Shown here in pieces: positions 1,090 through 51,635 of a stretch of 64,000 nt of DNA. A program made the translations under genes and the position numbers. How positions within the stretch are numbered: the stretch's first letter is position 1; every line of letters starts with the position of its first letter. The stretch spans positions 9,498-73,497 of the forward strand of contig JAUCBJ010004814.1 in NCBI GenBank assembly GCA_032718475.1. The letters are read 5' to 3'. This DNA comes from Nemertoderma westbladi. Lineage: Eukaryota > Animalia > Xenacoelomorpha. Below the pieces are notes generated by a model that had not been told where the DNA came from, searched no databases, and saw nothing but the letters and a program-made list of their open reading frames with translations.

Positions 1090-1110
1090 GGAATCCGTCC
1101 AGTAGTGTGT

Positions 1111-2517: not shown

Positions 2518-2521
2518 CGAT

Positions 2522-3406
2522 TCAATCCATGCTTTGTAAAGCCTGCTTGTCTTCTACCGAGGTCCCGACCCCGGTCTCCTTTAGTCCCTCAAAATCTTGC
2601 CTGAGCAGTCTCTTAAGCTGCTCCTCTGCTCTCTCATCACCCATTTCCTGCATGGTTCCCGCGAACATGCATCCTGATGTCTCCGACATCCTAAATGGTA
2701 TCTTGCTCTTGATTGGGCCACTCAGCGTCCACCCGAATGGTGTCAATATCGCCACCGGGTCACACTGCTTGTCTTCGCCGAAGACCGTTTGCATTCTTTC
2801 ATGGGCTGTTGGGCAGTCCATTCCTACTATGATGGATACCTTCCTAACGTCCACTTCTGGGATTGAGAAGTCAATGTTGTCCAGGAATTTATATTGCTCG
2901 ACCTCGATGTTGGTTGGCCGCCTGGCATTGATATTAATTGACTCTATCACTTGGATGGGGTCGATGGTTGCCCCGTAGTCGCATCCCGGTGCCACCGCTG
3001 CAATTGTGCACCATCCAGTCCTCATCTCCAGGATCTCATCTTTACTAGAGATGGTTGTTACCGCCATTCTACTTGGCCTCGTTCTCAATCCTATCTCTTC
3101 GGCCACCCATTCCTCGACTAATGTGAAGGCAGCTCCACTATCAACCAGCATCAGTGTGGTTACTGATTGATTGCCTTCTCCAATCACTCGCACAGGTACT
3201 ACCCCAAGTAGCACTGTTCCTCTCTTCTTCGCCCCTACTGTGCTCGTTGCCATTGTTTGGCCCTTCCTTTGACCGAACTTGACCGGCGTCTCCTTGCATT
3301 GCCTAGCTCTATGTCCACTCATCACGCATCGCGAGCAGATCTCGTTTCTCGCCGCATATTCTACCTGATCTTCTCTAGGTAGCGCTTGCCAGTACCTGCA
3401 GTTCAT
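2522..3406 (-). pseudogene. pol: gag zinc knuckle and aspartic protease
   Basis: CSRCVMSGHRARQC (CCHC), LVDSGA active site, AILTPFGWTLSGP. Confidence 0.9.
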
Positions 3407-3739
3407 GGTTTTATGAAGCGCATTTGTATGTAGCTGGCATTTGCTGTTTTGGTTGTAGCCGTCCTTATACAGTGCATCGCGTATCGCAGCTGTGTTTGTA
3501 CCAAAGTCCCTACTATTCTTATTGCTTGGGTTCGGCCTACTGGACGTACTGGGGTTATATTTATTTGTGTTGTTATTTCTCCCCTGTCCGTTCCATGGTG
3601 TGGTCTTACCTTCGGCTACCTGTGGACTTGCAGTCCCCTGCGTCGCTGCGTATGGCAGTGATTGCCTTAGCTTTGGTAATGCGTTTGACGTGTTGTGCTC
3701 TGGTTTCGGTCTATGATAATCCGTCTTTGGTCCCTTTCC

Positions 3740-6700
3740 CTAGCTATCTTCACTATAGACTGGGTCGGTTATTAGTTCAGCTTCGTAATTCAAGAAGCTT
3801 GACATTTCTTCTAAACCCGGTTCCGCACCCTTTCTATCTCGAGTGGAGAAGGCGATTTTCCTCCACTTGTTGCGCAGCCAGCTCGGTAGTGCCTGCGCTA
3901 TCGTGGTGAAGTTATTGGACGCGTTGAGCTCGTATGGCGCGTCTAGCGTCTTCAGCACGATTAGCGCCTTTTCGACTTTGTTAGCGAACGTCTTAATGCT
4001 AACGGGATTATCCTGTAGGCCACCCGATGTTATGCCTCTCAGTGTCTGTCTGATGATCTTGGCCGGGTGCCCATATTCCCTGTCCAGTGCCCACCATGCT
4101 GTCGTGAAGCCGCCCTCTATGCCTTGATATTGCCTCACGATGTCGTATGCTGGGCCTCCCGTGTATACTTGCAGATATTTTAGGCACTCCGCCTGCGTCA
4201 ACTTCTTTGTTAGTATTTCGTTACTATACATGCGCCGAAACTGTAGATATTCTTCCGGCCTACTCCCATCGAATTTGAATGGTTCCACGGGTGGTAACTC
4301 GATACTCGTTTTCAACGCATCGATCAACGTGGCCATCCCCATCGCCTGCGCTTCCAATGGGTTCGATGGATGCTGTATAGTTTCTCCTGTCTGGTGCGGT
4401 CCGTCCGTCCTATTTTCTGTCTTCCTTTGACTTGGGTATGTCATTGGGGGTAGCGGCCCCCTCCATATTTCTGTGTCGCACGACCTATTTTTATCCACGG
4501 CTCCCGTTGTTCTTGCTCCTATCGGGGTATATTGTTGATATTGTGATGGGGGAATGTCACCCTGCCCCCCCCCCCCCCCACCGGTATGTTCGGTACTGGG
4601 GTTGATGTTAATATATTGGGGCCCATGCACCTATCTGCAATAATTCCCCCCTCCCCTGGGTATATGTTATGTCCCTGCATGCTGTAGTCATACTGCTGCA
4701 CTGGTAACGGTATAGGCCTATCAGCTTCTGGCCTACCCGCCGGTATGTACTCCGCGACTTCCGGGTTTAATCCCGTCGTCCGCGCTATCCTATCGCCTAC
4801 ATTGCCTCTGTCAGCATGGCCTATGGTATGTGCAGTAAGGCCTACAGTATGTCCTACAGTCTGCATGTGTCGCTCGGGATCAAAGTTTATTCTTCTCGAA
4901 TAGTCCTCTCCGCGGCTACCGTATTCTCGATCGGTAGGTATATCCCGTCGGAAAGTTTCTCTTCAACCCCCTATACTGCTCTCATCTTCGTACCGGTACA
5001 TCGCGTACCCCTCCATCGGCGCGTAATGCGCCTCGCCAGGTCGCATCTCTCTGGGGCGACAGCAATCTCCCGAAGTTCGACCCCACTGACTCTCCGTTCT
5101 CATCTCGACTACCGACGGCTCACTATCCGTCCTCGCTCTTCTATCGTTCGCGGCGATACTTCTCCTACTCTCTTCTCCTCTTCTCCCTACAGTGCAATAT
5201 TCCCGTTCATGAGATCTCTCGTCGACCTCCCGGTTAAATTCCACTACTCTTCTTCCCTCTTCTGATCGGGCTCGACGCTTCGTCCGCCCTCTCACAACGT
5301 CAACCTGTCTCTCTCTGCTCGGTCGCCAGCCGTTGGGGATACTCGCAATCCCCCTATCATTCTCCGTCGCTGGGTGTTGCGGTTTACCTATTTCGGCCCG
5401 CGCATTATCCGTTGACGCCTGTGGGGCGCTCTCTACCCCCCCTTTTCGCCGCTAACTCGCTGTAGCCCCCCCCCCCACTCGCCACATCTAACTTCGCTAT
5501 CTCTCACCCTGCTACTATATCCCTCTCTAGTCGACACAATGTTCCTACTGCGGCTGGGTCCATTCATCCCCGCCTCTCTCTCCACCATTATTTGGCCTAC
5601 CGGGCCTACTCTGGGTTGGCTCAACCCCGCCACCTCCTGCCTACTAACTACGTGGCCTACCAGGCCCCCCTCGGGTTGACTCAACCCCACCACCTCCGGC
5701 CTACTAACTACGTGGCCTACCAGGCCCCCCTCGGGTTGACTCAACCCCGCCACCTCCGGCCTACTAACTACGTGGCCTACCAGGCCCATCCCGGGTTGGC
5801 TCAACCCCGCCACCTCCGGCCTACTAACTACGCGGCCTACCAGGCCCATCCCGGGTTGGCCCAACCCCGCCACCTCCGGCCTACTAACTACGCGGCCTAC
5901 CAGGCCCATCCCGGGTTGGCCCAACCCCGCCACCTCCTGCCCACTAACTATGCGGTCCATCAGGCTGGCTTCCTGATTATACATGCCCGATGCGTTCACA
6001 TTAATAGCACCACAGGCACCGCCATTGGTTAAGTCAATTAAATCTTGCACCCCAGTTAAATTATCTTGTGCACCCAAATTAGAAACGGAATTATTTTGTT
6101 CGTTCAAAATAAAGTTTTCCGGATTATTTTGCGCAATTGCGTTACTTAAATTATTTTGTAAGTTCGAATTCGGGTTATTATTTAAATTATTTGGATTATT
6201 TTGTGTAGCTACATTAATATTAGGATTACTTCCTACATTAACATTAGGATTACTCGGGTTTAAATTTAAATTACTGCTACCAGGTAAGATATTTCCTGCA
6301 ATAAAGGTTTGGTTAGAGTTCTCCAATACGGTACTATTAATATTAACGACATCTACTGTAGCATTATTATTACCCCCCCGCCCGTACGGTCACACCAGTT
6401 TTGGGTCTGTCGTGCGGTCCCTGTAAGTGGGGTATTAATAAATGTATCCACGGCCCCTGGCTCCTCGAAAATATTCGAGCCAGTCCCGCTCTCAGACGCC
6501 CCTATCCGCGCCAGTTCCAGTTCGCACGCGCGTCTAACTCCGTACTCTATAAGCACGCTTTGGCGTTTTCCCAATTCTTTTCGCTCACGTTCCTCTCTTT
6601 CCACTCTCTCCCGACACTCCCGTGCGCTCTGCTCAGCCAACTCTGCCACTCTCCTAGCTCCCTCCCATCGCCTCACGCTCCTTACGTTCCTTTTCCTCTC

Positions 6701-7832
6701 TCGCCTCACGTTCCTTACGTTCCGCCTCACGCTCTTTGCATTCCTTTTCCTCTCTCGCCCCACGCTCCTTGCGTTCCTTCTCCTCTCTCACCTCACGCTC
6801 CCTGTGTTCCGCCACACGCTCCTCTTGTTCCTTTCTCTCTATTTCCTCACACTCCCTAAGGATTTTCACGGCCCTTTCGGCCCTCTCTCCTGTTTTTCTA
6901 ATCAGCACCATTTCCTTCTCCAGCAGCATTCTCCCCTCCTCTAACCGTCTATCTACCTCCCTCTGACCTTGCACTATCAGGTCGAGATGGTACGTGGCAT
7001 TTATCTCTCTCACCCGTCTTTCTTTTACGGAGGATGTAGCAGACTTATCGGTTGTGACGGATTCCCTCCGCCCTCCCATCCTACTAATTTCCCCCCTCCT
7101 CCCGGAACTCCCTCCGACCGACGAGGCCGAATCCTCGGGGTTAACCTCGGATTCGCCCTCCTCAGGTCTCCTCCAGCCCACAAATTTTATACCCTGGGCA
7201 TCGACCAAGTATGGCCCTATGTACACTACATTAGGTTGCATACCCCTACACCACCATAAGTCACACAGTTCCTCAGCAACCCCTCTCGCTCTCTCCTTGG
7301 CCAGTTCTCTCTGCCCGAAGCGCATCAGATAATTAAAATGTATATTCGACTCACCTAGTCGTTTCCTCAGTCTCACCTCGTCTATCTTCGCCCCCTCCTT
7401 GGCCTCCTTTAGTAGTTTCCGGGTCGCGTTGTAGGCCCGTCGAAGTTGATCAGAAACCCCGACGTCCTCGTCGCCAACCTCTCTTCCGTCTCTCCGGGTC
7501 CGACGTCGTACCGGCGGCCCCACCGTCGCCGTTCCGGTGGGCCGTCCGTCGCCCTCGGCCTGTGGCGGGCCGGCGACATCGGTACGTTGACCGTCGTCGT
7601 GTGTCGACTTGTCTCCTTCTCCTTCCAACTCACCCTCTCGGTCTCTCAACTCGACTCCCCCTCCTCTCGACTCGACCTCTGGCTCCAGACGGCCCCCCTC
7701 ATCCTGAGCTGCCGGATGACCCGTTACCGATGGGTCCGGCGTCGTGGGCCTGTACCATCTGGTCGCGGCCTCACGGATCGTTAGTTCTTCGTCCGGGGTC
7801 CGCGTCGGTGTCGTCTCTCCCGACTGACTCAT
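3740..7832 (-). pseudogene. gag: long gag, broken into ORFs 6654-7832, 6353-6763, 5433-6326, 4963-5295, 4519-4866, 3740-4630
   Basis: 3740-4630 has KFDGS..EYLQF...LKYLQVYTGG...ALDREYG (DUF1759-like); upstream pieces are E/R coiled-coil, N-rich and repetitive, colinear with element B 39765-43000; joining them into one ORF is inference. Confidence 0.75.
5593..5962. repeat. 60-bp coding tandem repeat, about 6 copies (20-aa unit VAGLSQPGMGLVGHVVSRPE)
   Basis: Successive 60-nt lines nearly identical. Confidence 0.95.
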
Positions 7833-7900
7833 CTCTCTTCTATAGATTGGTGGCTGGTAGTTACTGAGTTCAACTAGGGCGGCAGCTCTTTTTCAATTAC

Positions 7901-8440
7901 TGTGACGGGATCCAGGAAGGATCCCGGTTTATCCGGTTTGTCAGTTCACGCGTCCCCGCCGTGTGTGAAAGATAAAAGAGTTTGCGTTGTTCGTTGTATG
8001 TAATATTGGGATATATAATACAGATATAGATAATGGTGGACAAAAGTTATTATTGTATATGGAAGGTGGGAGATGGTAATTGAAGTCCCAGTACTTCCCT
8101 AGCTAAACTATTTCTACTGTAACACCAATAATACTGAGATAACTGAATGAGATGATTACTGCCAACTGGTTATATTGCACGGGTTGGCCTTGTTGCTCTA
8201 CCTAGCCGATGCCTTTCCCCCCTCTGATTGGTTGATACCCTTGTTGGCGCCCTTTGGAGTGTTCCCGTTCACTCCACCTATTCTCTCTCGGTTAGGGGTT
8301 TGGCCCCTGACCCTCATTGTGTTTCTCCTTCCCATTTTGTTGGGGTGACACGAGTTATTGGTTGCCCAATCTCGTGGCCCCCAATATTGCTTATCGGCTT
8401 ACTTTGTGGGTTTGGGTTAGCGGGATTGAATAAGCTAACA
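7901..8440 (-). repeat. 5' LTR of element A (540 bp)
   Basis: TGT...ACA ends; both ends align with LTRs at 36505-37173 and 43051-43699; TATAA and TCAGTT (initiator-like) on minus strand near 8170 and 8144. Confidence 0.8.
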
Positions 8441-10959: not shown

Positions 10960-12640
10960 ATTTTTTTACTTGTCTGTGTTGTATTTTCAAAAAAATTGAA
11001 AGGTACAAGATTTTTTTCAATACAGGTTTTCTGGGGCGCCGAATCCATTGGAAAATAATTAAAAATGATGTGATTGCTGTAAATGTCTTCCTAATAGTGA
11101 ATTGTGAATTCCTAATTGTGAAGTTTTCGAGTTATAGCACCATTTTTTAAATTTATTTTGTGCACTTTTTTTAAGCGTTTTTTGAAAATTACATTTCATG
11201 AAATATGATTTGTAATCTCTATTTTTGATTTACACCGGTTTTTTTGGTGTTTGGAATTAGATAGAATTCATATAAATTAATTTAGAAATTCCAAACTTGT
11301 TTTTTCCAACGTGTGCCAAATTTTGGTGCAGAAACCAAATTTTGAGATATGCAATTTTTGTAAATTGATTGTTTGTACCTGTTTTTTGCGCAATAGGGGT
11401 TTTGGGGGAATTGTGCTGGATTACGCAAAAACGGCCACAAAGGGTGAAGATCTGGGATTCACACTTCAAGAACGCAGAAGTAGTAGATATCCGGCAACTA
11501 CAGTCACAGACACCGACTTTGCGGATGACATCGCCCTGCTCTCTAATACGCTAGCAGATGCACAGCTTCTACTAAATAAAGTGGAGAGGGCTGCTAAGGA
11601 GGTTGGATTGCATATAAATGCTACCAAGACCGAATTCATGACCTTTAATGTTGATGGAAACTTGACAACCATTGATAATAATCAACTAAGGCAGGTCGAT
11701 GACTTCCAATACCTTGGATCATGGATAGAGAGTAGCAAAAAGGACATAGAAGTTAGGAAAGCAAAGGCTTGGATAGCTCTATCAAAAATGGATACCATCT
11801 GGAAATCAGATCTCTCCAGGCACCTGAAGACCAAGTTCTTTCGAGCCACAGTGGAAAGTGTATTTTTATACGGGGGTGAGACCTGGACACTGACTAAATC
11901 ACTTGAACAACGAATTGATGGTTGCTACACAAGACTACTAAGGGCAGCCCTAAACATCAGCTGGAGACAACACATGACAAACGCCGAGCTTTAAGGTACA
12001 ATACCACCTGCATCAACCACCCTCCGTGAACGCAGATTAAGATTCAGTGGGCCCTGCTGGCGAAGTAAAGACGAGGTCATACCAGATCTACTTCTCTGGC
12101 AACCAACTCATGGAAAGCGTAGTCGTGGACGACCTGCCATAACATATATAGATCAACTTGAAAGGGATACTGAACTTGGGAGAAACGAAATTGCGACAAC
12201 TATGGAGAATCGGGAAGCCTGGAAGGATCTCATTTCCACTGTCCGAGTTCGCTCGACCTAGTAGTAGTAGGAGTTTTGGGGGGTTCTGGTTTCGATGGAA
12301 TATATAAGAGGTGCATCAGCACGGTGCATGCAACTTGTATTTTTCGGTACTGTGTGCAAAATTTGGTGCCTTCACGAAATTCAGCATTGGACATCTCAAA
12401 CTTGTACTTTTTGGTGATGGGTACGAAATTTTGTGCTAGCACCAAAATTTCCCATACGATGCCGGAAAATGTGAGAACCAATGATCTGGAAAATATGAAA
12501 TGTATTCCGCTAGAATCAGTGCTCATGAGAAATGTGAATTTATAGTGTGATATGTATAAGTCAATTAAATTTTTGTGTTAAGCCTAAAAACTGCTGGTTA
12601 CTTGTTTTTTTCATTTTTTTTGCCTACGTAGAGCACTTTA
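10960..12640. mobile_element. fragment of a relative of the non-autonomous piggyBac family, split by an RTE insertion
   Basis: 11130-11400 and 12270-12630 align with 16275-17790; 11010-11085 resembles the reverse complement of 17810-17890. Confidence 0.7.
11409..12269 (+). mobile_element. 5'-truncated RTE-clade LINE
   Basis: DFADDIALL, FQYLGS, YGGETW; (TAG)n tail; TSD taggggttttggggg / taggagttttggggg; near-identical to 21601-22470 reverse complement. Confidence 0.93.
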
Positions 12641-15189: not shown

Positions 15190-15560
15190 GTTTTTAAATT
15201 GTTGTTCCTATGGAGGCTATAATAGCTATATTAATGTCTCTCCAGGGCACCATCTCCATTGATCAATTATAGTGAGATCTAAAATTTAGATCTTTTATTT
15301 GCCTCAAAGGTTTTCAAAGGGAACTGAGTGACCAGGTATGCTAGTACAAGCATAGAATCTGTCCATAATGTTAATGTTAGTGGAAAATATAAGTTGGTGT
15401 TAACCATATCTGTTAACTCAGCTGCCACTGATGCAGCAAGAAGTTCTTTCCGAGGTAATGACAAAAATGTATTTGATTTAATAGTTTCGGATTTTGATGT
15501 TACGAATGCAACATAGATACTCCTGTGGAATTATTTCACTATTAGATAGCTATTTGTAAT
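15190..15560 (-). pseudogene. old BEL/Pao RNase H fragment
   Basis: SLPRKELLAA, WTDSMLVLAYL, FEAN. Confidence 0.75.
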
Positions 15561-16101: not shown

Positions 16102-18146
16102 CCCTATTAAACCCGGGGGGGGGGGGGGGGGTCAATATGACCCCCCCCCCCCCCCGTGGTTTTTTTATTATAATTCTGAAACAAACGCAGGTGGGAATCT
16201 GAAATTTTTTGACTTTTCCTAAAAATCTATTGTCTTCCTAGTAGTGAAAACCGTTTTCTAAAATATTGGGTAGTTTTCGAGTTATAGCACTATTTTTTAA
16301 CCCTACTTTTGGCACTTTTTTTGAGACGTTTTTTGAAAATTACATTTCATTAAATATTACTTGTAACATCTCTATTTTTGATTTACACCGGTTTTTTGGT
16401 GTTAGCAATTGGATGGAATTCATATAAATTGATTTAGAAATTTCAAAATTGTTTTTTTCGGTGGGTGCCAAATTTTGGTGCTAGCACCAAATTTTGAAAT
16501 ATGTTAATTTTGTTCTTTAACTGTATATACATCCGGTGTTTCCCAACCTCCCGTTTTATATGCCACCCTTCCACTCTATCACTAGTAACATGGACGTTAG
16601 TATAAGTAACTCTGATTACTAAAGGTCGTCCCAAAACTGAAACTATTACACTATTATTAGTATAACCGTCGTCGTATCGCTCCACGTTTAATTCTCCTTC
16701 CTCGTAGTTCAACCAAAATACACGATAACCGCCAATCCAACAATGGATCAATCTTATATCGTTGATGACTATATCGCTTGTTGATAACTAACGCTAAGTT
16801 GATAACTTAACGTTAAGTTATCTCCCTCCTCCACACATGTTCGTGGGGACTTCGCGCAGCACGTAGTCGGCAAGCCTTGGCATACGGTTCATATAGAGCA
16901 AATGGAGCATGTCTAGTTTGGACCCCATATCCCATGCTATAAATGTATTCATTCGATATACAATCATATGTTAATCCGCTAGGTGGTGTCAAATTGTTAC
17001 CGACTACGTGTCTATACGTAAATTGGGGTTTTTTGGGGTTCTGGATTCGATGAAATATATATGAGTAGCACCAAGCGTATCAAACTCGTATTTTTCGGTG
17101 CTGTGTGCAAATTTTGGTGCTAGCACGAAATTTTGAAAATCCATTCAATAGATAAAATTGCTTGTGACAATTTATTTCTTGCGTTTTAGAGGTTTATGGC
17201 TGTTCTGAATTCAATGGAATATATAATTATCAAACTAGGCATCTCAAACTTGTATTTTTCGGATGTGGGTGCAAAATTTGTGTGGGCACCAAATTTTGAA
17301 AACCATCAAATATATCAATTGATTGTGTCACCTTGTTTCTTGCGTTATACGGGTTTGTGATTGTTCTGAATTCAATGGAATCAGTAAAAATTTCTTAATA
17401 GTTCTCAAACTTGTATTTTTCGCCGGTGGGTGAAAATTGTTGTGCCAGCACCAAATTTTGGAAAATATGCAAATTGATCAGTAGATAGTATCACCTTGTT
17501 TCTTGCGTTATACGGGTTTATGAGGGTCCTGAATCCGATGGAATCAATAAAAACAGCACTGGACATCGCAAACTTTGGTGATGGGTACGAAATTTGGTGC
17601 TAGCACCAAAATTTGCCAAATTACGACGAAAAATGCAAGTAGCAATGATCTGGCATAATAGAAATGCATTCCATTAGAATCAGCGCCCTCGAAAACCTGA
17701 AAATGTGAATTTATAGCATCGTATTGGTGAACTAAAAATTTTGTGTTCTAACTGAAAAGTGCTGGTTACTTGTTTTTTTAATTTTTTTCCTGCGCAGAGA
17801 TGACTAAACAGCCATTTATAGTAATCATATCATTTTTAAATATTTTCCAATGTATTTTGCAACCCAGAAAACCTGTATTGAAAAATAATTAGCCGAAAAT
17901 GTAACTTTCAAATTTTTTGAAAATTGTGCATTACTTGTAATTTTGGTGCTGCAATATAACCACCGCAGTACTTTTTTTCGAAAAATTTTTTTTCAGTCGG
18001 ATCCAGACAAGTGATACCTACGTACAAACAAAAAATCAGACGTTTTCGTAAATATTTGTAGATTTTAGAGGGGGGGGGGGGTCAATATGACCCCCCCCCC
18101 CCCCCCCGGTATTTGTACAACATTTTATAGCCCGGTACTAATAGGG
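16102..18146. mobile_element. non-autonomous piggyBac-type element, copy 1
   Basis: TTAA on both sides; TIR CCCTATTAAACCCGGG vs CCCTATTAGTACCGGG; homologous to 47500-53296. Confidence 0.88.
16833..17012 (+). mobile_element. internally deleted Helentron/HINE-like element
   Basis: Near-identical to 25283-25448, joined to the right-end motif ccgactacgtgtc. Confidence 0.6.
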
Positions 18147-19057
18147 TTAAGCCAAAGCAACGCAAGGTGAAGGGATGTCCACGACGCATAAAGGAACCCG
18201 CACCATTTCGCCCATGCCCATTTGGAAAGCATGACCCGATTGCCTGAGAGCGCTTTACGCGCGTAAGACCTTAGATCCGGGGAAAGTGTGACGCCATCCT
18301 GGGACGCTGTAAAGTGTAAGAGCAAAATACTTTAGATTCAGACAGAAACCCCTCGGTTAACCTGTATCTCTTACAGGTGCAAGCCGATGCTGTTTGCTAG
18401 TACGTGCGAGTACACTAGGTGCAAATATCACACTCTATAATTTGGTGACATTGCCATACTAGCGGTACAGCACTGTAGGCCTTGCGGCTTTCAGTGCGTA
18501 TAATTTATGTGCGTACTGTAATCAGTAGGAGGTACTGATATTAAATTAGATAATATCAGTAAACTTACATAATTTAGTTTAGTTTTTGTATTTGACTAGC
18601 TATAGTTAGTTAGTTTGTAACTTATTTTGTCTTAGATCTTTATCTTGTCTTCGAGTCATTGCATCATACGCATCACCGCATTGGCTAGGCTACTGAAAGG
18701 CTGTGAAGGAAGCAGAAAGGCCGAAGGCTGGTGAACTGAGTTTATAGATATAGTTGTTGGTAATATCAGATATAAATCACAATCAGTGTAATATAATAAT
18801 AGCAGTAACAATGACAGCGACGACGGTTAAAAACCGTCTGACTTCTACACTCATTGTAGCCAACTGAAGCACAATTAACAGAGTAACGGTTATATATTAC
18901 ATGGGATACACATTCCTACCTAGGTTTAGCCTACCAGTGAATGTGCGATAATTGATGGAAAGCCGCTCTATCATTGGTTGATCTATTCCCCAGCCAATCC
19001 CTATTTTTCACTGGACCTATGCTAGCTTCCCCCTGAGATGAGCTATTGTGCTGGCAT

Positions 19058-20238
19058 TGTAAAGGCTTTTGCGGAATTAGCTGGTTATTTTCCCCGCAAA
19101 GTACTCTGTAGTTGTTTTAACGGACATAAAAAGCCGTTTCCTTACTGTACCGGTGTTTTAGTGGACATAAAAGTCATTTCTTATGTATGTGTACTTTAGC
19201 GGACATAACTAGTGATTTTATGTCGCAATAAGCCAAATACTCTAAACATCGGAACTCCGATGACGACATCTATCAGCTGTGTCCACGTGTAACTTTTCTT
19301 TGTTCTTTGTTCGTTCTTTGTTCGGTCGACCAATCAGAGCGGTTTTCACTCTGTGTTGGAGATTGTATACAGAAACTCATGCAATTCAGTCAGTGTGTGT
19401 ATCTTTCTAAGCCCATAACACCGGCTTAGGATTCTTCTGTACTTCTGTGGAAGTTTCAGACTTTAGCAAAACATTAGTAGGCTTTGGTCATAGAAACGTA
19501 TAACTGTTATCAAACCACACCGCACCACATATCCTAATCATATTGTCAACTATAAACACCACATTTTTACTGCTATTTACTGTCGGTTATTAATTATATC
19601 AGTTGATGGAATATTGTTATATTTGGATAATATCGATAAATAATCATAAAACCCCCAATCTTCTTGATATACTGAAGGTAAGAGACCGGTTACATATAAC
19701 AATTGCGACTTACATTAAAGTGGTTTTGGAGTGAATCTAATGCTATTTCATAGGCACTACATGAGTCGGTTGCTGTTCTCTTTATATGTGACTAAAATTA
19801 GTGAAGGTTGGCAGATCGGTGTGCAGCATTGTGCGGTAGTGTGCATGATTGTGACTGATAACAAAGCATCTCCTAAAGAATGCGCTTTATACGTGAACCA
19901 ATAGCCATCCCGTTGTGTCTAGTGTAAGTCATAACTCTGTTTACATACTTAGAGCGCCACGTCCTAAAGGAACTGTTAATATTTCCCGAAAGTGAATAAT
20001 ATTGGTTAGAGATTATATATTAACAATCAGTCGAATAATACAGTAGGCCTACACCGCAATAAGGTCAAAGCTTCCGAATCCAGTCTCCCGGGTATATCCA
20101 GCGGGTGAATGGTCGCGCATAGACAGGCTTCGGCTAATGTAGTGTATCAAATACTCGTCATAGGCTAAAGTCGATTTATAATCTAGAAGACATCTAAATT
20201 TGGCAGGTTAAACTGCTAAAGGTCTGAAAGCGCGAACA
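19058..20238 (+). repeat. 5' LTR of element C (1181 bp)
   Basis: TGT...ACA; about 15 substitutions and one 15-bp indel versus the 3' LTR by eye. Confidence 0.97.
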
Positions 20239-20524
20239 ATAACAGTTATTGAGTTCTAATTGCAGTGTAGGCAATAAATACAGTCTAAAGTACCGGTTGA
20301 CCGGTACCCAGTAGGCCTAACTACCTAACTACCCGAACCGGTACTTACAGCAGTACAGGTACAGCAGTATTATTCGATTTTGATAATTATATACCGGTAG
20401 GTCTTAATAAGTAATCGGGGACGCCTGGTTTTTATTGAGATTTTACTTAGGCCTATTTCTGTCAGTTTTATTTATTTGAAAGTTAATATTGAGTAGAAGA
20501 CGTGTAAGCCTGCTCAGATTGTAC

Positions 20525-21104
20525 AGATAATTTGTAGGCTGGACTGTTGTCTGACTGTTGTTAAGTCTAAAGAGATTGTAGTGTGTGTAGAGTGTATGTC
20601 CGATAAAGTACTAGTTAGGAACGTAGGGGCTTCCAGTGCTGTGAGGTTAATCCCCCTGAAAGAATAAGTCGTACTACTCGGTTAGAACGCATACTAACTA
20701 ACCATTTCGGAGTCTGCATATACTGTAGTTTGTTTGGGCTTGATAGTAGTCTGCCAGCGTTTGGTCTGTATTTTGTTTGTGTAGTCTGTACGGGTAGCGT
20801 AATATTTCTTATTTAGATAATTTGTAGGCTGGATTGTTGCCTGGATGTTGTTAGGTCTGAAGAGATTGCGGTATGTGTAGAGTGTATGTCCGATAAATTA
20901 CTAGTTAGGAACGTAGGGGCTTCCAGTGCTGTGAGGTAAATCCCCCTGAAAGAATAAGTCGTACTACTCGGTTAGAACGCATACTAACTAACCATTTCGG
21001 AGTCTACATATACTGTAGTTTGTTTGGGCTTGATAGTAGTCTGCCAGCGTTTGGTCTGTATTTTATTTGAGTAGTCTGTACGCGTAGCGTAATATTTATT
21101 ATTC
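20525..21104. repeat. 290-bp tandem duplication in the leader of element C
   Basis: agataatttgtaggctgg starts at 20525 and 20815 with near-identical continuation. Confidence 0.9.
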
Positions 21105-21600
21105 AGAGTTTATGCGATTATTCGCAACATTCACAACCCCAAGTTTATTCCTACAGTAATTGTGCTTGTTATACATACCGTTATAGTTAACTTAACCCCG
21201 GTACTATATCAGGGCTGCTTGGCGTAGGTAAAGACTGGTGATTTTGTGCCCCGGTCACTCCTGCAGATACCGTGGTTCCTTTAGCTGTACAAGTATTTCT
21301 AACTGCTGATTATTTGTTGTATAAGTACTTGTACCTAATTTAGGGTTTAGTGTACAGTGCTTTCCGAAGGTAATTAGTGTGTAGGCAGTATATTTGTGTT
21401 GTAAAGTGGTTAATAGGCACGTTGGTTCTGGTAGACTGCGGTAATTAACTTCTAGGTAGGAACACTCCGTTATACATAACGTAGTACTTATAGCGTTACG
21501 GCTATAAGTTGTCAGATGGTGGTATTTTTCCTATCTGGACAATGCAGTATATTTACTACTGCTTTGTTATTTTCAAATACCGTAGAATCCTGTCTGTTTG

Positions 21601-23170
21601 TACTACTACTACTAGGTCGAGCGAACTCGGACAGTGGAAATGAGATCCTTCCAGGCTTCCCGATTCTCCATAGTTGTCGCAATTTCGTTTCTCCCAAGTT
21701 CAGTATCCCTTTCAAGTTGATCTATATATGTTATGGCAGGTCGTCCACGACTACGCTTTCCATGAGTTGGTTGCCAGAGAAGTAGATCTGGTATGACCTC
21801 GTCTTTACTTCGCCAGCAGTGCCCACTGAATCTTAATCTGCGTTCGCGGAGGGTGGTTGATACAGGTGGTACTGTACCATAAAGCTCGGCGTTTGTCATG
21901 TGTTGTCTCCAGCTGATGTTTAGGGCTGCCCTTAGTAGTCTTGTGTAGCAACCATCAATTCATTGTTCAAGTGATTTAGTCAGTGTCCAGGTCTCACCCC
22001 CGTATAAAAATACACTTTCCACTGTGGCTCAAAAGAACTTAGTCTACAGGTGCCTGGAGAGATCTGATTTCCAGATGGCATCCATTTTTGATAGAGCTAC
22101 CCAAGCCTTTGCTTTCCTAACTTCTATGTCCTTTTTGCTACTCTCTATCCATGATCCAAGGTACTGGAAGTCATCGACCTTCCTTAGTTGATTATTATCA
22201 ATGGTTGTCAAGTTTCCATCAACATTAAAGGTCATGAATTCGGTCTTGGTAGCATTTATATGCAATCCAACCTCCTTAGCAGCCCTCTCCACTTTATTTA
22301 GTAGAAGCTGTGCATCTGCTAGCGTATTAGAGAGCAGGGCGATGTCATCCGCAAAGTCAGTGTCTGTGACTGTAGTTGCCGGATATCTACTACTTTTGCG
22401 TTCTTGAAGTGTGAATCCCAGATCTTCACCCTTTGTGGCCATCCTCATTGCGTAATCCAGCACAATTACAAATAGTAATGGTGCTAATGTGTCACCTTGC
22501 AGTACGCCAGCAAGGATTGAGAAAAACTCAGTTTCACCATCTGGTGAGAGTACCTGCGCTTCTGTGTCACAATATAGCAATCCAATGCCAGCAACAATTA
22601 CTTCTGGTATTCCATAAGCTCTTAGGATTTCAAGCATTTTACCTCTATGGATGGAGTCGAATACCTTCTTGAAGTCCACAAAAGTCATGACTGCGGGGAG
22701 ATTCTTTGACTTAATTCCTTCAATCAGTCTCCGTAGTGCAAGTATCTGAGCTATTGTTGATCTACTTGGTCGAAATCCGTTTTGGCTCTTACGCAGTAGT
22801 TTCTCTATGTGAGGCCTAATCCTATATAGAATCATTTTATTGTATATTTTGGCAGCTACCACAAGCAGACAGATCCCACGATAGTTTGTTGTTATGCCGA
22901 GGTCTCCTTACTTGGGGAGAGGCTTTAGTTGACCTTTAGTCCAAATTGGTGGTGGCTTTTCCCCTTTTAACATCCGGTTGCAAACATTCAATAATGGTCT
23001 ATTTAGCACTCCGGTTTTCCATACCTCCGCTGGGATTTCATCTAATCCACTCGCTTTATTATTGGACATGCTTTTAATGCTTCTTTGGAGTTCGGCAGGT
23101 GTGAAGTCCCCTGTTTCTATAGGTAGTGTCTTGTCATATATTTTCCTTGTTGGGCTGACCTCGATGATTG
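21601..23170 (-). mobile_element. 5'-truncated RTE LINE inserted in element C
   Basis: Q.GFR, FVDFKK.FDS, GVLQGDTLAP, FADD; (TAG)n tail at 21601; same family as 11409-12269; TSD not clear. Confidence 0.93.
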
Positions 23171-24133: not shown

Positions 24134-26265
24134 ATGTATGACACAAAGCAAAACCTGTCAGACAGTCTCTTAGATACAACCATCTGTGACCCAGACAGGA
24201 GTGTTGAACGTGTGAGACCGAAGTTCAATTCACCTCCTACTGTAAGAAAGATCATCCCTCCAGTAGTAGTATCAGACCCTAGGCTAGTCCAACACCGTAG
24301 GTCTATCATAGGCACTCGAGCTCAGGTCAAGCGGGACCAAGAAGCAGCGGAACAGCAGCAACACTCGAGCCGAGAACTTATTTCTCAGCGGCCCGACAGC
24401 TCCAGTAGTGCGGATACTGTAGAGCTGACACCAGAGCGCGGAGCAAAGATGGCAGATGCGGTTTATTCGGATCCCCTTCTCATCCTTCCTGCAGCCGTAC
24501 TCACTAGGGTATTGATTGCAGTGGAGGAACACCAGATTGATTGGGCGAGAAGTAAGCGATCGACCAAGGATATGCGGGATACACAAGGGAGGAACTGAAG
24601 TCTATTGTCGAGTCGCAATGGAACTTCCCCGGACCCGGACTCCCGTTTGACTTATCGGAAGCTGCCTGGGAAGACATACACCGGATGGGAGTGACAAAAG
24701 ACACCAGCGATCCAACTGTATGGAAGAGGTCGGCAGCAGGATACGTACAGGGATTCTTCAGCTCTATGGAGCGATTAGAGGAACAACTGTTTAGACAACC
24801 CCAAGGACCTCAAGAGCTTATCAAGTTAGAGAAAGAATTCTAAGAATCAGACTAATCTTATCGGCCTTCGAGGAAGCTTCAAAAAGAAGACAAGACACGT
24901 CGTTGCAAGTTGCCGTAAAGACTTGGTTTCAATGGGTGAGTCTCCAGGTTCAAGGAACGGCCCAGTGGAAAGCTCAGCTGGCTGAGCGCTCAACCCATGG
25001 AGAATCAACATACGCTACCTTTTCCCAAGTGGAAAGCGAAGCGACAGCAGAGAAACCGCATAAGAGGGATGCTATTGACATCTATCTGTCAGACTATCAA
25101 CGATTTGTAGGTGACAAAGAGTTGAGGAGACGGCTGGATGGACTTCGCCCTAATAGTGAAGGAGCCAAGTTTGTTCTGGACACAATAGATGCGGAAATGT
25201 TAGCTGCGAACCAAGCTAAATTTGATGAAAGCAGCCGCATCGCTGGGTCCATGAAGAACAAGTAAAGAAAAAACGTATAGAAGACACGTTCGTGGGGACT
25301 TTGCGCAGCACGTAGTTGGCAAGCCTTGGCATACGGTTCATATAGAGCAAATGGGGCATGTCTAGTTTGGACCCCATATCCCATGCTATAAATGTATTCA
25401 TTCGATATACAATCATATGTTAATCCGCTAGGTGGTGTCAAATTGTTATTCTGCAATTTCGTACTTACCAGTGCAGCACTGTACAGCAGTACCGTACCGG
25501 TAGGCCTATGTCATTACTTCTGAGTCTCTAGCGGATCCCCAATTAAATGTCTTAACTTTTCAATTTCGTAAAAGATAGACTTCATGATTCTCTACAGGCC
25601 ACCAAAATTTCAGCTCAGGAAAATGAGGCCTTCCCGAGAAATTTAACATTTTCTAAAAACCACATAATCTGTCGTAGCTGACGTCAGACTGCATGATTTT
25701 TGAACAAACTTTACAAACTTTCTAAACTTTCACTCTACTACTTACCTACTAAGTTTGGTTCAATTCCGAACGAGCGATGCCGAGAAATTCGCGTTCAAAC
25801 ATTTACCATACAGACGGACGGACAGACAGACAGACAGACGGACATGCCCCATTTGCCCTATATGAACCGTATGCAAAGGCTCGCCGACTACGTGTCTCGC
25901 CCCACAGAAAGACAGCAGCAGCGGCAATGGCAGCGGCAGAAGCGGAAAGAAAGGCGGCAGAGGCAGTGGCAGAGGCAAAAGCGGCAGCTGCAGCAATAAA
26001 AGCGGCAGCGGCAGAGGCAAAAGCGGCAGCAGCAGAGGCAAAAGCGGCAGCTGCGGCAGTAGAAGCGGAAAGAAAAGCGGCAGCGGCAGAGGCAAAAGCG
26101 GCAGTTGCAGCAGTAGAAGCGGAAAGTAAAGCGGCAGCGGCAGCGGCAGAGGCAAAAGCGGCAGCGGCAGAAGCGGAAAGAAAGATAGCAGTGGCAGAAG
26201 CAGAACGAAGAGCATCTGAAGAGACCACCCAACTAGAGTTACCCAAAGAGGTGAGGTCTCTATAG
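24134..26265 (+). pseudogene. extra ORF upstream of gag in element C, unknown protein with Ala/Glu/Lys-rich tail, disrupted by frameshifts and a HINE insertion
   Basis: ORFs 24134-24598, 24903-25265 and 25777-26265 are colinear; removing about 25257-25907 plausibly joins ...GSMK to KTAAAA... Confidence 0.6.
25257..25907 (+). mobile_element. Helentron-associated (HINE/DINE-1-like) non-autonomous element
   Basis: Starts AACAAG; subterminal inverted repeats 25309-25362 / 25841-25894; (GACA/GACG)n microsatellite at about 25810-25845. Confidence 0.7.
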
Positions 26266-27492
26266 GGGTGACTCTAACAGGCGGTGGCGGACTCGTGAGG
26301 GTCTGGGGGCACGTTAAATTGTTGGTATAGTGCAGGGGAGTTACTGAAGGCCCTCGTGTCTAGCGAACCATGAATCAACATGGTGCCGTGGTACCGTCTA
26401 GTCGGCCTGTTGCCGTACTGCCAGTCCTGTACACAGTAGGGGTGGTGGCTTAGTGTGATCTGTGGTTTATGCGGTCTATGTGGTAGGTCTATGTTTGGTA
26501 TGTATGAGTTGACCAGACTCTTTGCTGTCTCCAATCGGTTGCCGAAACGTGTCTTTTCCCAGGGTAGCACTATTGGAATGGAGGTGTTGCATCGGAATGG
26601 GCAGGATTCTGATGATTCTGTTGGTACTACTATTGGAATGGAGGTAGCACCCGGAATATCCGCTGCAAGGAGGGGATGGTGGTAGTGTGGTCCGAGTGAA
26701 TGATACTCTGGAATCTGTGGTTTGTGTGTGGACGATCAGTGGCAGTTTGCTTGAGCTTTCTGTTGCTGTGGGTACGTGGTATACGTGAGTGTATGTATGG
26801 CCACTGCGAGTGAGTATGGGAACCCTTGCCGGTTGGTCTAGACGCCGCTGGTATTAGTAGGACCCTATCTTTACAGCGCCCCAGCATACTTTGTGCACAC
26901 AAAGTTATTTTGCCCTGACGGCAAAATAAGGTACTCTCGGCTCTTTTAACAGTCGATACAATTTAGTCCCCTCTGATTTTGTCCCCGATTTTGTCTTTCC
27001 CGATTATGTCCTCTGTGTGTGCATGGTATGTGTCAGATTTTGTGTTTACCATAGTGTACTTGATATTTTGAACATCTATTGAGTACACGTGTACAGTGAC
27101 TGGTAAGTGGTTACTTGTTCCTAGCTTTCGAGCTAGTCAGTATTGTTTGCGGAACCGATTTCCCCTCAATACTGCCAGTGAGGCGGGTGAAAACGTGTCA
27201 AAATTCCATGTTGGGTAGCGCAAGCCCACTTGGGACAAGACCGTCGGTTTGGCTCAAGGGCGACCTTGATGCTCGATCGCTATCGACTGGTCCACCCGCC
27301 TGTTGACTCTCTGAGTTGGCTCAATGTACAGTCAGGCCACAGTAAGATGACAGTAGGTGAACTTTGTGCTATTCGGCTACACACGACGAGCTGTGCCGGT
27401 GTGATCGGGGGATTGAAAATTGAACCCGGGAAGCATCGGGCTACCCTCCGGCCCGGTCTGATAAAAACGGAGTCGGACTGGCCCCAAGGGTA

Positions 27493-29860
27493 GTGGAAAA
27501 GCGTCCTCCTCGTGGGTGCGCCTCGGGGAGGAGCCCAGAAGGACATAAGTGGGAAAATCTGCAAGAGAAGCAAGACTACATAGATAAACAGAGAACAGCT
27601 ACTCAGTGGCAGCTGATAAGTCGATCCACTCCCAAACGACAGGGATTTACATCCTCTGATGAAGGCGATACCACCGATCCTGAAGGCGGAGGAAATAGAT
27701 CTCGTCTAAGTAGGCGTAGAAGAATGTCCCACCGTCAGAAATTGCCTGATTTGCCCCCAGCTGTTAGAAGGCAACTAACTAACACAGACTTAGGTAGTAT
27801 AGAACCCATAGACCAAATAATTAAAATAGAAAGACTCCCTACTATAGTAGATGAGCCTGAAATAATTAGGCCTGTTCTCGAAGCCACCCCTTCGGTGATA
27901 GAGACACCTGTACTCCCAGAACCTACCTCTAAATTCCCTTTGCACAGTACTAAACTACCTGTGCCCAGTAGGACTGTTCCCGAGTCCAAACCCGTCCTGG
28001 ACGCCGAGCAAGACATCAAGAATTTATCGCCCGTCGTCTCTCATCTGCCCACTACTACGTTGGCGTCTCCCACTTCAGCAGTCGAGTGGGTGGATGAGGG
28101 GCGGCAAGGGATGAATCTCCTGCTCGGGCAGATGCAGGAGACTGTTCAACAGTTTAAGGGAACAGTAAGGGAAAGTAGGTTAGAGTTGCAAGAAGTGCAG
28201 CAAAGTATCGCGTTAGAACGCGATAAATTAGTAAATACACAAAAGGGTATACCACCACCCCCTATAACAATGTGTCAACCTGTTAGGCCTGAAGTATTTC
28301 ATGCGCAAGGTGTGGAGCTTACACGCATCTATACTGCTAGTGAAGTAGAAACTCCTATAGTAAACCCTATTAAGGGTAATTATAAACCTGTTGACAATGA
28401 TATTCCATATAGACTTGATAATAATCCAAGAAATTTATATACCGATAACTCGATATTAAATAACACGATGGCCCAAGAAAGTTTTACGCATCAAATGGCT
28501 AGAACCGAAGCCCGTCAAGCGGTAAAGGTGGGAGAGATCGTCAAGTTCAATGGAGATGAGATGAAATGGTTACCTTTTAATGAATATTATAAAGATAACA
28601 TACAGAACTCTGTGCTATCTAACGGAGAGAAACTTAGATTCCTCATCGAGTGCTTGGAAGGATCTCCCAAGTTAATGGCGTTAAAGTTTATTGGACATCC
28701 AGATGGATTAAGACAAGTTTGGGATACACTAAACATCAGGTATGGTAATAGGACTAACATAGCTAGGTATTTATATGCGAAATTAATGGTGCCCCGAAAG
28801 TTTCTTAGCAGCGGGATTATAGAGTTTTACAACGAGATTCAAGAGATCTGTAGACAACTAGATTGGTTAGGTAAGTCTCATGAATACCAAAATTCTATGG
28901 TTGTAGGACCCTTAGCGTCAACTTTGCCAAAGGGTGGAGTAGGTACACGCTGGGACAAGAAAGTGTTATATATGATGGAACAACAACGAAGAGAGCCTAC
29001 CATGGCTGATCTCATGTCATTCTTAGATGGAGAGGTAAAATTACAGCTCCTAAAGCAGTCCAGAGAGAAGTCGCCGGAAAATAAGGTAAGTGTGAAAACC
29101 GTTTCTAGGAGAAAGGTAAAACCAGTGTGCTATACAGACGACGGCGAAAGCCAGGCTTCTCGAGAGGAAGACAGCAGGAAAGACACGGAAAGATCTTACT
29201 ATGACAACAAAGCGCCTAAGTAAATTCAAGTCTCGAACCAATGACAGGAGAGAACAGGTAAGAAAAACTCCTCCTACGTCTCCTAAGAGAATTCATGGAA
29301 GAAAGCCCGAGGAAAGAACGAGTGTGCACAACGTTACCCAAAGTAAGGTAAGTAACATCAAACCAAAATGTTTGCTGTGCGACGGGCCGCACCGTTTAAG
29401 TGCGTGTGATGAATTCCTGAGGAAATCACTAAAGGATAGACGTGAAGTCATGTGGGATAAGCGGTTGTGTTATAATTGCCTCAGACGAGGACACCAACAG
29501 CGAACCTGTTACTCCGACGCAAGGTGTGCAAAGTGCGGCGCAAAACATCATATCTTGTTGCACAGTGAATTCGAACGAAACAGCCCGAGTCAGGTAAGTG
29601 AGTCCGAACTACATGTCCAATTCAGTGATGTGAACGACACTGACCAAAGTTCTGAGATGGAAGGATTCTATACGGACGAATTCTCCGATGAAAACGAATC
29701 CTGTTACCTGATAAATACCGCAGTGTATCGAGCACTTATGTATGAAAAGGACACCGACAGTGAGCTCCCCCTAACTACTTCTGTCCGACAACCATCTTGG
29801 AAAGCACCAACTTCCAATGTAGGATTTTCCCGTAGTGCAGTTGAGGGTCCACGGACCTGA
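27493..29860 (+). pseudogene. gag: gag of element C (DUF1759-like capsid plus three zinc knuckles), frameshifted near 29210
   Basis: KFNGD...EKLRFL..CLEG...L..RYG; CLLCDGPHRLSAC, CYNCLRRGHQQRTC, CAKCGAKHHILLH. Confidence 0.92.
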
Positions 29861-31010
29861 AAGGAGTTATATAGTGAACGCCCTCCTTGACTCCGGTAGC
29901 ACAGGAAAATTCATCGACAAAGAACTAGCCGAAGACATCTTTGCTGGACAACCCAAGTTCCGAACTAAGTTAAACATGTCAGGAATTATGCAGGTTTGGA
30001 AATCTACAGTAATAGCAGATTATTATGTAGGTGCGTTGTCCACCCCCCAGGATGAACTAGCAGAACACAGTATAAGGTCAGTAAAGATGGTGGCGATAAA
30101 GAACTTCGCTACCAGCCAAGTAGAACCTTATAACTGGGATGAGGACGATTTCACCCAGCAGCTTAAGATACCTAGATTCAACACAGACTACCCTGGAGTG
30201 CAAATACTCATCGGCCAAAATGCGCATGAAGCGCTTGAGACATTGGAGAAACGGCCTGCTCAACCGCAACCACTACAAGCCTATGCGGGAAGAACTAGAG
30301 TAGGTTGGTACTTTACTGGCCCTTCCCGTAGAACTCTCATGGAAAGGTTACCCAAAGAACGGTTCTACCAAGTAAGTGAATGGGAAGCGGAGAGCAGTGA
30401 GGTGGACGACCCAACTGAGGGAACACCATACTCCTCAGATAATGACGAAATTAACTCCAATATAGATCAATGGAGACATTGCCCCGAGACGATTAATCTA
30501 GTCGACATCGCTTCCAGAGGAGCAACTCCTCAAGAACTGACAGATACTCCAGACTGGTTAGGTGGACCCGACTTCCTAAGTAAAGAAGATGAATGGCCTC
30601 CCCATCGTACCACGGCTGAGATTAGACAAGCCAAGGGAGCGGAGAAAGTCAAACCTAAAACCCGGACGAGTAAATCAAGGTTATTTAAACCCGTGATAGA
30701 TCTGTCTGTACTACACATTGCCAGGGACGACGCTGTGGATCTAAACTCCCCCACCGCGATCCGATCTGTTGTGGAGATCAGAGAGAGAGACTGGAGATCT
30801 GGAACACCAGATGTCTCGCCGGGACTCTCACCTCTCCTGCCGGGAGCGATGGACCACTATAGATCCTGGAATCGGCTTTGTAAGGCCGTCGTGTATTTGA
30901 AGCGATGTTTCTATCGTCACTATTCCAGGACGAAGAGGAAACCTGGAATTGTATTCGAAACATAGCAGCTCAATCGCCCAGTTGGTCGTTTATGTTTACT
31001 GGAAAGAGAA
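29835..31010 (+). pseudogene. pol: internally deleted pol: protease, RNase H tail, last residues of integrase region
   Basis: ALLDSGS, ILIG, TRVGW..TGP, then directly QWRHCP..NLVDIASRG..WLGGPDFL; RPVGRLCLLE at about 30975; no YVDD RT or integrase core. Confidence 0.88.
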
Positions 31011-34326: not shown

Positions 34327-35522
34327 TGTAAAGGCTTTTGCGGAATTAGCTGGTTATTTTCCCCGCAAAGTACTCTGTAGTTGTTTTAACGGACATAAAA
34401 AGCCGTTTCCTTACTGTACCGGTGTTTTAGTGGACATAAAAGCCATTTCTTCTGTATGTGTACTTTAGCGGACATAACTAGCGATTTTATGTCGCAATAA
34501 GCCAAATACTCTAAACATCGGAACTCCGATGACGACATCTATCAGCTGTGTCCACGTGTAACTTTTCTTTGTTCTTTGTTCGTTCTTTGTTCGGTCGACC
34601 AATCAGAGCGGTTTTCACTCTGTGTTGGAGATTGTATACAGAAACTTATGCAATTCAGTCAGTGTGTGTATCTTTCTAAGCCCATAACACCAGCTTAGGA
34701 TTTTTCTGTACTTCTGTGGAAGTTTCAGACTTTAGCAAAACATTAGTAGGCTTTGGTCATAGAAACGTATAACTGTTATCAAACCACACTGCACCACATA
34801 TCCTAATCCTATCAATGCAAATCATATTGTCAACTATAAACACCGCATTTTTACTGCTATTTACTGTCGGTTATTAATTATATCAGTTGATGGAATATTG
34901 TTATATTTGGATAATATTGATAAATAATCATAAAACCCCCAATCTTCTTGATATACTGAAGGTAAGAGACCGGTTACATATAACAATTGCGACTTACATT
35001 AAAGTGGTTTTGGAGTGAATCTAATGCTATTTCATAGGCACTACATGAGTCGGTTGCTGTTCTCTTTATATGTGACTAAAATTAGTGAAGGTCGGCAGAT
35101 CGGTGTGCAGCATTGTGCGGTAGTGTGCATGATTGTGACTGATAACAAAGCATCTCCTAAAGAATGCGCTTTATACGTGAACCAATAGCCATCCCGTTGT
35201 GTCTAGTGTAAGTCATAACTCTGTTTACATACTTAGAGCGCCACGTCCTAAAGGAACTTTTAATATCTCCCGAAAGTGAATAATATTGGTCAAAGATTAT
35301 ATATTAACAATCAGTCGAATAATACAGTAGGCCTACACCGCAATAAGGTCAAAGCTTCCGAATCCAGTCTCCCGGGTATATCCAGCGGGTGAATGGTCGC
35401 GCATAGACTGGCTTCGGCTAATGTAGTGTATCAAATACTCGTCATAGGCTAAAGTCGATTTATAATCTAGAAGACATCTAAATTTGGCAGGTTAAACTGC
35501 TAAAGGTCTGAAAGCGCGAACA
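34327..35522 (+). repeat. 3' LTR of element C (1196 bp)
   Basis: Direct repeat of 19058-20238, preceded by GGGAGTGG. Confidence 0.97.
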
Positions 35523-35769
35523 GGCATCTCTCTCCAGCAGGCTATGTATATTTTCTTGGTACTTTAGTATGCGATATTATATTGGTAATATCGCATATCC
35601 AATCATGATTCGTAAATCATGCGAATTGGAGTGCGCTCCAAATCCACGGAAATTCAATCTAATACTGGATGTGGGGTGGAATTTTTTTCTTGGGGCAAGT
35701 TTTGCGGACTGGCCCGCCCTCTGGGTCTGTTCTCACTATCCACCCTTGGTACATCTGCGAGCTAAGTTG

Positions 35770-42700: not shown

Positions 42701-43000
42701 GTACCGGCGGCCCCACTGTCACCATTCCGGTGGGCCGTCCATCGCCCTCGGCATGTGGCTGGCCGGCAACTTCGGTATTCCGACCGCCGTTGTGCATCGA
42801 CTCGTCCCTGTATCTTTCATCCGTCATGGTTGACGGCTGCCCTCTGCTTGGGGTACCGGATCATCCCTCGTCAGCGAATCCGGCTTCGCAGGTCAATACC
42901 GTCTCGTCGCGGCCTCGCGGATTGTTTGGTTGGTGTCATCCGGGGTCCGCGGCGGCATCCTCTCTCCCTCTGATAATCGGGGTTCCCCTTGGCTCATCTT
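39765..43000 (-). pseudogene. gag: degraded gag N-terminal region of element B
   Basis: Homologous to 4070-7832 (YVGPYLVDA.GIK.VGW, EVNPEDS, TFVNTPLTG, N-rich block, GHTVGLTAHTIGHA). Confidence 0.85.
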
Positions 43001-51439: not shown

Positions 51440-51469
51440 TAATTTCACCATATTTTTATTCACCAGAGG

Positions 51470-51635
51470 ATACTCCAGTACCCATTAAAGGACGCCCTTG
51501 AGAAATGCGTCCTAGCTCGTCCCTTTAAAGCGTTCGTCCTGAAACGAAAACTCTCCCGACCCCTTTGCGGGGATCGAACCCATGACCTCTGGAGAGATGT
51601 TAATTATAGGCACTGGATTAACACTACACAAACTA
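51470..51635 (-). mobile_element. possible degraded tRNA-derived SINE
   Basis: Minus strand GAGGTCATGGGTTCGATCCCC (T-arm/B-box); A-box poorly preserved. Confidence 0.35.

Follow-up and report, generated by a model that had tools for sequence, protein, structure and literature searches.

Three BEL/Pao retrotransposons (elements A, B and C) in repeat-rich animal DNA of Nemertoderma westbladi lack a tRNA primer site after the 5' LTR; in each of them the first 9 or 11 nt past the LTR are the exact reverse complement of a stretch inside that same LTR. All positions refer to the window, the whole 64,000-nt stretch that we analysed (contig JAUCBJ010004814.1). Judging from the sequences, elements A to C and their relatives in other genomes likely prime reverse transcription with their own RNA, whether the primer is taken from the start of the transcript or from within it. 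That it is taken from an internal LTR site, and not from the transcript start, we regard as the probable form of this priming.

We begin with element C, the only one of the three whose LTR end is fixed by its own LTR pair; the ends in A and B come from their mutual alignment together with a third, related LTR (37173-36505). Element C consists of the following parts:

19058-20238, plus strand: 5' LTR, TGT...ACA, 1181 nt, defined by the LTR pair and the target site duplication (TSD)
19364-19391, plus strand: candidate TATA-like and TCAGTC motifs 5' of the site, weak and with short spacing (motif scan)
19500-19510, plus strand: candidate self-primer site (LTR positions 443-453), followed by CA; exact reverse complement of 20239-20249
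19551-19556, plus strand: canonical TATAAA 3' of the site, a rival promoter (motif scan)
19678-19684, plus strand: consensus-like candidate splice donor 3' of the site, present in both LTRs
20239-20249, plus strand: primer-binding position, ATAACAGTTAT, directly 3' of the 5' LTR and without TGG
27424-30965, plus strand: gag (DUF1759), zinc knuckles and a protease-like stretch fused to post-RNase H sequence
34327-35522, plus strand: 3' LTR, 1196 nt, defined by the LTR pair, with a copy of the self-primer site at 34769-34779

The two LTRs are 97.5% identical across 1196 columns, have TGT at the start and ACA at the end, and are flanked by the TSD GGCAT (19053-19057 and 35523-35527), which fixes the point at which the 5' LTR ends where the initial annotation had put it. 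That annotation had also reported an 11-mer other than TGG directly after the LTR with its exact complement at 19500-19510, and both are confirmed; the candidate self-primer site is identical in the two LTRs. Its caveat of a near-palindrome holds for element C, where the 11-mer and its own reverse complement differ at one position (self-pairing -5.0 kcal/mol), and does not extend to A and B, which are not palindromic. The gag of element C matches PF03564 (DUF1759) with an E value of 9e-12, and RT, RNase H and integrase are absent from the element. Its leader is very long, gag beginning about 7 kb past the LTR as a result of insertions, and contains a 290-nt tandem duplication (94%, 20525-21107); a LINE RT fragment also lies within the element (21603-22907), with 97.6% identity over 865 nt to a copy at 11409-12270. 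Element C itself sits inside the 3' LTR of another A/B-like element (35523-35630 and 18620-19057, minus strand), and this host element adjoins the B-related 3' LTR at 37173-36505; four or more related LTRs are thus nested here.

Contigs of four sequencing runs, aligned to element C, reveal that its family is very abundant and varied. Among the matches listed for C in these runs (40 of 423), none lies at the site or the primer position. A related family whose primer position has another sequence is hinted at by a single loose end in run X5. A 24-nt piece of the LTR end of C was not found in the metagenome contigs.

Elements A and B lie on the minus strand, each with one LTR within the window:

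1-4630, minus strand: gag-protease-RT-RNase H-integrase region of A, interrupted by stops and cut by the window edge (only the start of the integrase is present)
7900-7892, minus strand: primer-binding position of A, without TGG
8084-8076, minus strand: candidate self-primer site of A, 9 nt, followed by CA; exact reverse complement of the primer position
within 7867-8110, minus strand: predicted extended pairing in A, 8110-8098 with 7879-7867 (duplex -31 kcal/mol)
8440-7901, minus strand: 5' LTR of A, 540 nt, with TATA-like at 8175 and TCAGTT at 8146, from the alignment with B and LTR 37173-36505
37173-36505, minus strand: 3' LTR of a B-related element, 74% identical to B, which sets the LTR end of B and serves as a negative control
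43050-43040, minus strand: primer-binding position of B, without TGG
43284-43274, minus strand: candidate self-primer site of B, 11 nt, followed by CA; exact reverse complement of the primer position
43699-43051, minus strand: 5' LTR of B, 649 nt, with TATA-like at 43352 and TCAGTT at 43322 and 43285

The arrangement is thus the same as in element C with other letters, over 9 nt in A and 11 nt in B, as had been claimed for them, and the LTR of C is without similarity to those of A and B (best blastn E 0.27). Element B is truncated in gag and 70-75% identical to A internally. A 412-codon open stretch directly follows the primer position of A (6657-7892, minus strand); it is 49-53% identical to B (42105-42967, minus strand) and has no Pfam match. 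Just upstream of B there is a broken LINE with endonuclease and RT similarity (43900-46700, minus strand). Elsewhere the window contains an isolated BEL/Pao RNase H fragment (15294-15521, minus strand), a tandem array of about 40 copies of a 31-nt unit that are 96-97% alike (49057-50300), and MITE-like small elements with terminal inverted repeats at 50900-51470, 60100-60290 and 25284-25900, the last of which is related to 16835-16999. As the initial annotation had noticed, CA follows the LTR-internal site in all three elements of the window; as a general cleavage signal CA is rejected, being found in only 4 of 16 relatives.

Within the first 60 nt past the LTR, TGG is found in none of A, B and C, and the window contains no tRNA gene. 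Shuffling the LTR rarely reproduces the match (0.1% of 5000 shuffles for C, 0.02% for B and 0.3% for A), and the sequences past two 3' LTRs, taken as controls, give matches of 3 and 4 nt only. An anchored match of at least 11 nt within 800 nt upstream occurs at 8 of the 2274 ACA positions in the window. These eight are C, B and three inverted-repeat elements counted on both strands, and the background outside inverted repeats and elements is 0 of 2266 ACA sites. For a 9-nt anchored match the count is 25 of 2274, which makes A on its own a 1% event. On search, none of A, B and C yielded a spliced match that exceeds its contiguous one in length.

By their proteins the three elements belong to BEL/Pao. 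Element A has the Pao-type RT-RNase H region and the DUF1759 gag (PF03564, E 6e-11), matches Peptidase_A17 (PF05380, E 4e-40), shows integrase similarity, retains the YVDD and RNase H motifs and follows the order gag, protease, RT, RNase H, integrase. Element C has the DUF1759 gag; of this order, only gag, protease and a post-RNase H piece remain in it, and B is assigned through its 69% gag identity to A. The same domain order with a DUF1759 gag, an LTR of 0.2-1.2 kb and TG...CA ends are features of the Belpaoviridae in the available text of the ICTV profile (PMC8742986); the LTRs of C have this form, together with a short TSD of 5 bp. The profile text also describes the family as tRNA-primed from an 18-nt tRNA-Arg or tRNA-Gly site (PMC8742986). 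A, B and C lack this site and are filed as BEL/Pao on their proteins, not as fitting the profile's priming. What they carry is the Tf1-type feature, about 11 nt past the 5' LTR with a complement inside that LTR (11 in B and C, 9 in A). Membership in the Tf1/sushi group, which has a Ty3/gypsy chromovirus polyprotein, is ruled out by the BEL/Pao proteins.

Covariation between the two sites was among the checks that the initial annotation had proposed for its idea, and it is present in relatives from other genomes. A search found 71 homologues, most of them with PF05380. With an alignment of the A RT-RNase H region and five homologues as the query, 95 loci were retrieved, 79 of them from metagenome contigs (confirmation covering the best 80 of 403) and 16 from genome bins. 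The records in which these 16 BEL/Pao loci (L080-L095) stand carry the labels of bacterial or archaeal genomes; the bins contain animal DNA. Of the 14 loci in which a two-sided repeat was examined, three were dropped before scoring (L008, whose repeat is internal and not an LTR, and L046 and L050, whose CA end is unclear) and L093 was added, giving 12 scored loci. The LTR end of L093 was placed by eye before its TGG, the end of L091 was moved back to ACA, and L094 duplicates L027.

All seven families with pair-fixed LTR ends and without a tRNA site pair with their own LTR over at least 11 positions, one of them with a mismatch. The pairing runs across a GT-AG intron of the LTR in L005 (11 nt), L027 with L094 (12 nt), L034 (15 nt), L086 (11 nt), L089 (11 nt) and L081 (10 of 11 positions paired), so that in six of the seven families it exists solely across the GT-AG junction; in L022 there are 11 contiguous nt, in the intron-less 3' LTR. 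In most relatives a predicted GT-AG intron interrupts the complementary stretch, so the pairing there is possible only in RNA. In the tRNA-type loci with a TGG site (L072, L073, L091 and L093), the self-match reaches only 4-5 nt; the site of L072 is the tRNA-Met-type sequence given in the available text of PMC5445492. Cross-pairs reach 11 nt in 0 of 208 cases and 10 nt in one. Fifteen different primer-site sequences pair with their own LTR, while tRNA-type elements and cross-pairs do not, which supports, at the level of sequence, the self-priming that the initial annotation suggested.

The 5' copy of the L022 LTR (1-326) has an acceptor before the site, and the 3' LTR (6694-7103) is intron-less; the difference between the two copies is either an intron loss caught in the act or a chimeric assembly. 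A contiguous 12-nt self-match, also intron-less, is seen in L045 (1-300), starting 6 nt past a guessed LTR end.

A blind scan of 61 upstream regions gives a spliced match of at least 11 nt in 13 of the 61 loci (11 without same-RT copies), always 2.2-3.5 kb before the RT. In the reverse-complement controls a spliced match is the top match in 0 of 61. Contiguous matches, seven in the scan and seven in the controls, carry no weight. No match appears in 41 of the 61 loci, most of which have cut LTRs; for L017 and L064, which have none in the blind scan or under relaxed rules, cut LTRs are not the explanation. The relaxed rules add L009 (10 nt), L012 (13 nt) and L069 (11 nt, by eye). A two-piece scan of contigs with split LTRs, in which cut contig ends made known positives missed, gives 0 of 16 own and 3 of 240 cross matches, and two scans of viral contigs found no relative.

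The self-pairing loci form one group without a tRNA-type member in a FastTree tree of 108 rows, and 13 of them fall within a 21-row branch (SH-aLRT 99) in a quick IQ-TREE run; L069 lies outside this branch. The RT of A, whose best identity is 37%, is a long branch outside the self-pairing clade in all three trees. Forcing it into the clade costs 0.89 log units (AU p 0.46), i.e. this placement is not rejected. A single origin of self-pairing is neither shown nor excluded by the trees.

The length and the position of the helix are nearly constant. Over 19 rows with 15 distinct sequences, 205 of the 209 pairs at positions 1-11 are Watson-Crick, with at most four pair types per column, and pairing then falls to 3 of 19 rows at position 12 and 2 of 19 at position 13; a 10- or 11-nt threshold served to pick 9 of the 19 rows, which in part imposes the lower bound but not the drop past 11. 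The primer position begins with GT in 17 rows and AT in two, position 2 being T in all 19. The helix starts 0-3 nt past the LTR end: at once in A, B, C and the GTAA group, and 2-3 nt past it in L027, L034, L010, L012, L028, L029 and L069. The primer positions of A and B begin with GTAA without offset, as do those of eight relatives. Where extra bases occur at the DNA end, they may be trimmed by integrase, as in retroviruses. The sharp end of the pairing at 11 nt matches the length of the Tf1 primer, which according to the available text of PMC7175516 is 11 bases long and is released by an RNase H cut between bases 11 and 12.

From these features we propose the following course for self-priming from the internal site. 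Transcription would start in the LTR, about 45-115 nt upstream of the site, and the RNA would fold back in its 5' part, with about 11 nt pairing with the sequence directly past the LTR; the RNA would be cut at the 3' edge of the helix, by the element's RNase H if the analogy with Tf1 holds; and the freed 3' end would be extended into the LTR end, and in strong-stop DNA this cut would then mark the beginning of R. In most relatives the 11 nt would be assembled only once the LTR intron has been spliced out, and A, B and C would be intron-less forms with a ready-made stretch, as from the copying of a spliced 3' LTR. This descent of A to C we infer from L022 and from the shared GTAA start. A primer kept on the DNA end, as is reported for Tf1, would be turned by plus-strand copying into the next primer site, and site and primer would stay matched; in Tf1 the primer is reportedly copied into the next primer site in this way, to go by the title of a 2006 paper by Atwood-Moore. 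Element C would need RT, RNase H and integrase from another copy.

The chief competitor is the geometry of Tf1, where the RNA starts at the site and its own first 10-11 nt act as primer, and we consider it unlikely here. The sharp end of the pairing at 11 nt agrees with it, and the paired first-exon pieces in the relatives mostly begin with A, but the first exon in the spliced relatives would then measure only 3-9 nt. A first exon of this size is too short for ordinary splicing. A spliced primer needs a real first exon; in L022 and L034 a TATA stands before about 100-112 nt of exon ahead of the junction. The initial annotation had tentatively placed the site well downstream of the start, and the motifs of A and B favour this: the TATA-like to TCAGTT spacing is a canonical 29-30 nt, at 69 nt (A) and 47 nt (B) before the 3' end of the site, and the B-related LTR repeats the TATA and TCAGTT pair, with a spacing of 29-31 nt across the three LTRs. 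Against it, the second TCAGTT of B (43285) overlaps the start of the site, in line with an RNA start there. The motifs of C are ambiguous, weak upstream of the site and with the canonical TATAAA downstream of it. A further point against a start at the site is that the predicted pairing in A extends about 60 nt upstream of it.

This extended pairing of A goes beyond the core with P 0.012 and 0.007 against shuffles. Extended pairing at P<0.05 is seen in 4 of 18 rows including A, and the combined P of 0.0006 is inflated, as three of these rows are related. B (P 0.70) and C (P 0.55) show none against shuffles. In predicted folds the helix of B has a probability of 0.5-0.97 and that of A 0.2-0.9, being about 0.2 when upstream sequence is included, with -7.3 kcal/mol for the 9-nt core. 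For C the probability is 0.0 in folds of the full 728-nt loop; for it to reach 0.36-0.97 the loop has to lose a hypothetical intron that runs from 19678 to an acceptor at or beyond 20083, and three nearer acceptors fail. As R requires, 11 of 12 relatives have a polyadenylation signal (AATAAA or ATTAAA) 12-80 nt past the predicted cut; A and B have no AATAAA after the site.

The helix may alternatively serve folding, packaging, dimerisation or translation control, while a tRNA fragment or another host RNA displaces it and primes. In favour of this, the available text of the ICTV profile gives the family as tRNA-primed (PMC8742986), and half-tRNA primers exist in Copia (PMC6317226, available text). 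We nevertheless find it quite improbable: each of the 15 mostly AT-rich sequences would need a host RNA plus, separately, a matching LTR stretch, the helix begins 0-3 nt from the LTR end, which is where a primer must end, the pairing length is fixed, and tRNA-type relatives are without the helix. Chance, or in C a locally copied near-palindrome, draws on the form of the C 11-mer and on the 9 nt of A being reached at 1% of ACA sites, but it is hardly credible and for the group as a whole largely refuted, as A and B are not palindromic, the match is present in 3 of 3 5' LTRs and in 0 of 2 3' LTR flanks, no cross-pair reaches 11 nt, and matches across splice junctions cannot stem from DNA duplication.

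To our knowledge, self-priming has been shown only for Tf1 and is predicted for some gypsy and Copia groups. With Tf1 and Tf2 of Schizosaccharomyces pombe, Tj1 of S. japonicus, the Tf1/sushi group and Tcn1 (Ty3/gypsy), the elements described here share the lack of a tRNA site, about 11 nt past the 5' LTR that pair with the own LTR, and a predicted cut at the helix edge (PMC7175516, PMC4600332 and PMC5341516, available text). The Tf1 group is a different superfamily, and its priming was demonstrated by experiment in Tf1, whereas ours is predicted from sequence. In the TAR lineage of plant Ty1/copia (Houba, Osr-1), self-priming is predicted from an LTR match of at least 10 nt past the LTR (PMC6317226); B and C reach this cut-off and A, with 9 nt, would miss it. 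TAR elements are plant Copia, and a splice-built primer is not mentioned in the available text of PMC6317226. The fungal GalEa Copia elements also lack a tRNA site past the LTR, but according to the available text of PMC5445492 their site is conserved and palindromic, pairs downstream and has no LTR complement that was found, while the A-C type is variable and pairs with the LTR. BEL/Pao elements are described as tRNA-primed, with replication poorly understood (PMC8742986, available text). No report of self-priming in BEL/Pao was found in the literature searched; PBS, primer, tRNA and priming give zero matches in the available texts of PMC554778, PMC3118150, PMC6238403, PMC8556966, PMC11117352 and PMC2774666.

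Tentatively, and at somewhat less than even odds for the picture in all its parts, these elements may form a widespread BEL/Pao branch in which tRNA priming has given way to a fixed 11-nt self-primer cut out of the leader's interior, ancestrally assembled by the spliceosome across an LTR intron, so that splicing would license reverse transcription; A to C would have shed the intron in the course of their own replication, and in one of them additional pairing in the leader would imitate a long primer. Each family comes with an exact predicted cut site and start of R. If self-priming holds, tRNA-free priming would extend to a third LTR superfamily, where its geometry would differ from that of Tf1 (an internal site, often splice-built), and this would bear on whether self-priming is ancestral or has arisen repeatedly, a question raised in the available text of PMC3601003. 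It may also be the reason that such elements are overlooked by annotation tools which insist on a tRNA site, and it would place these elements outside control by tRNA fragments.
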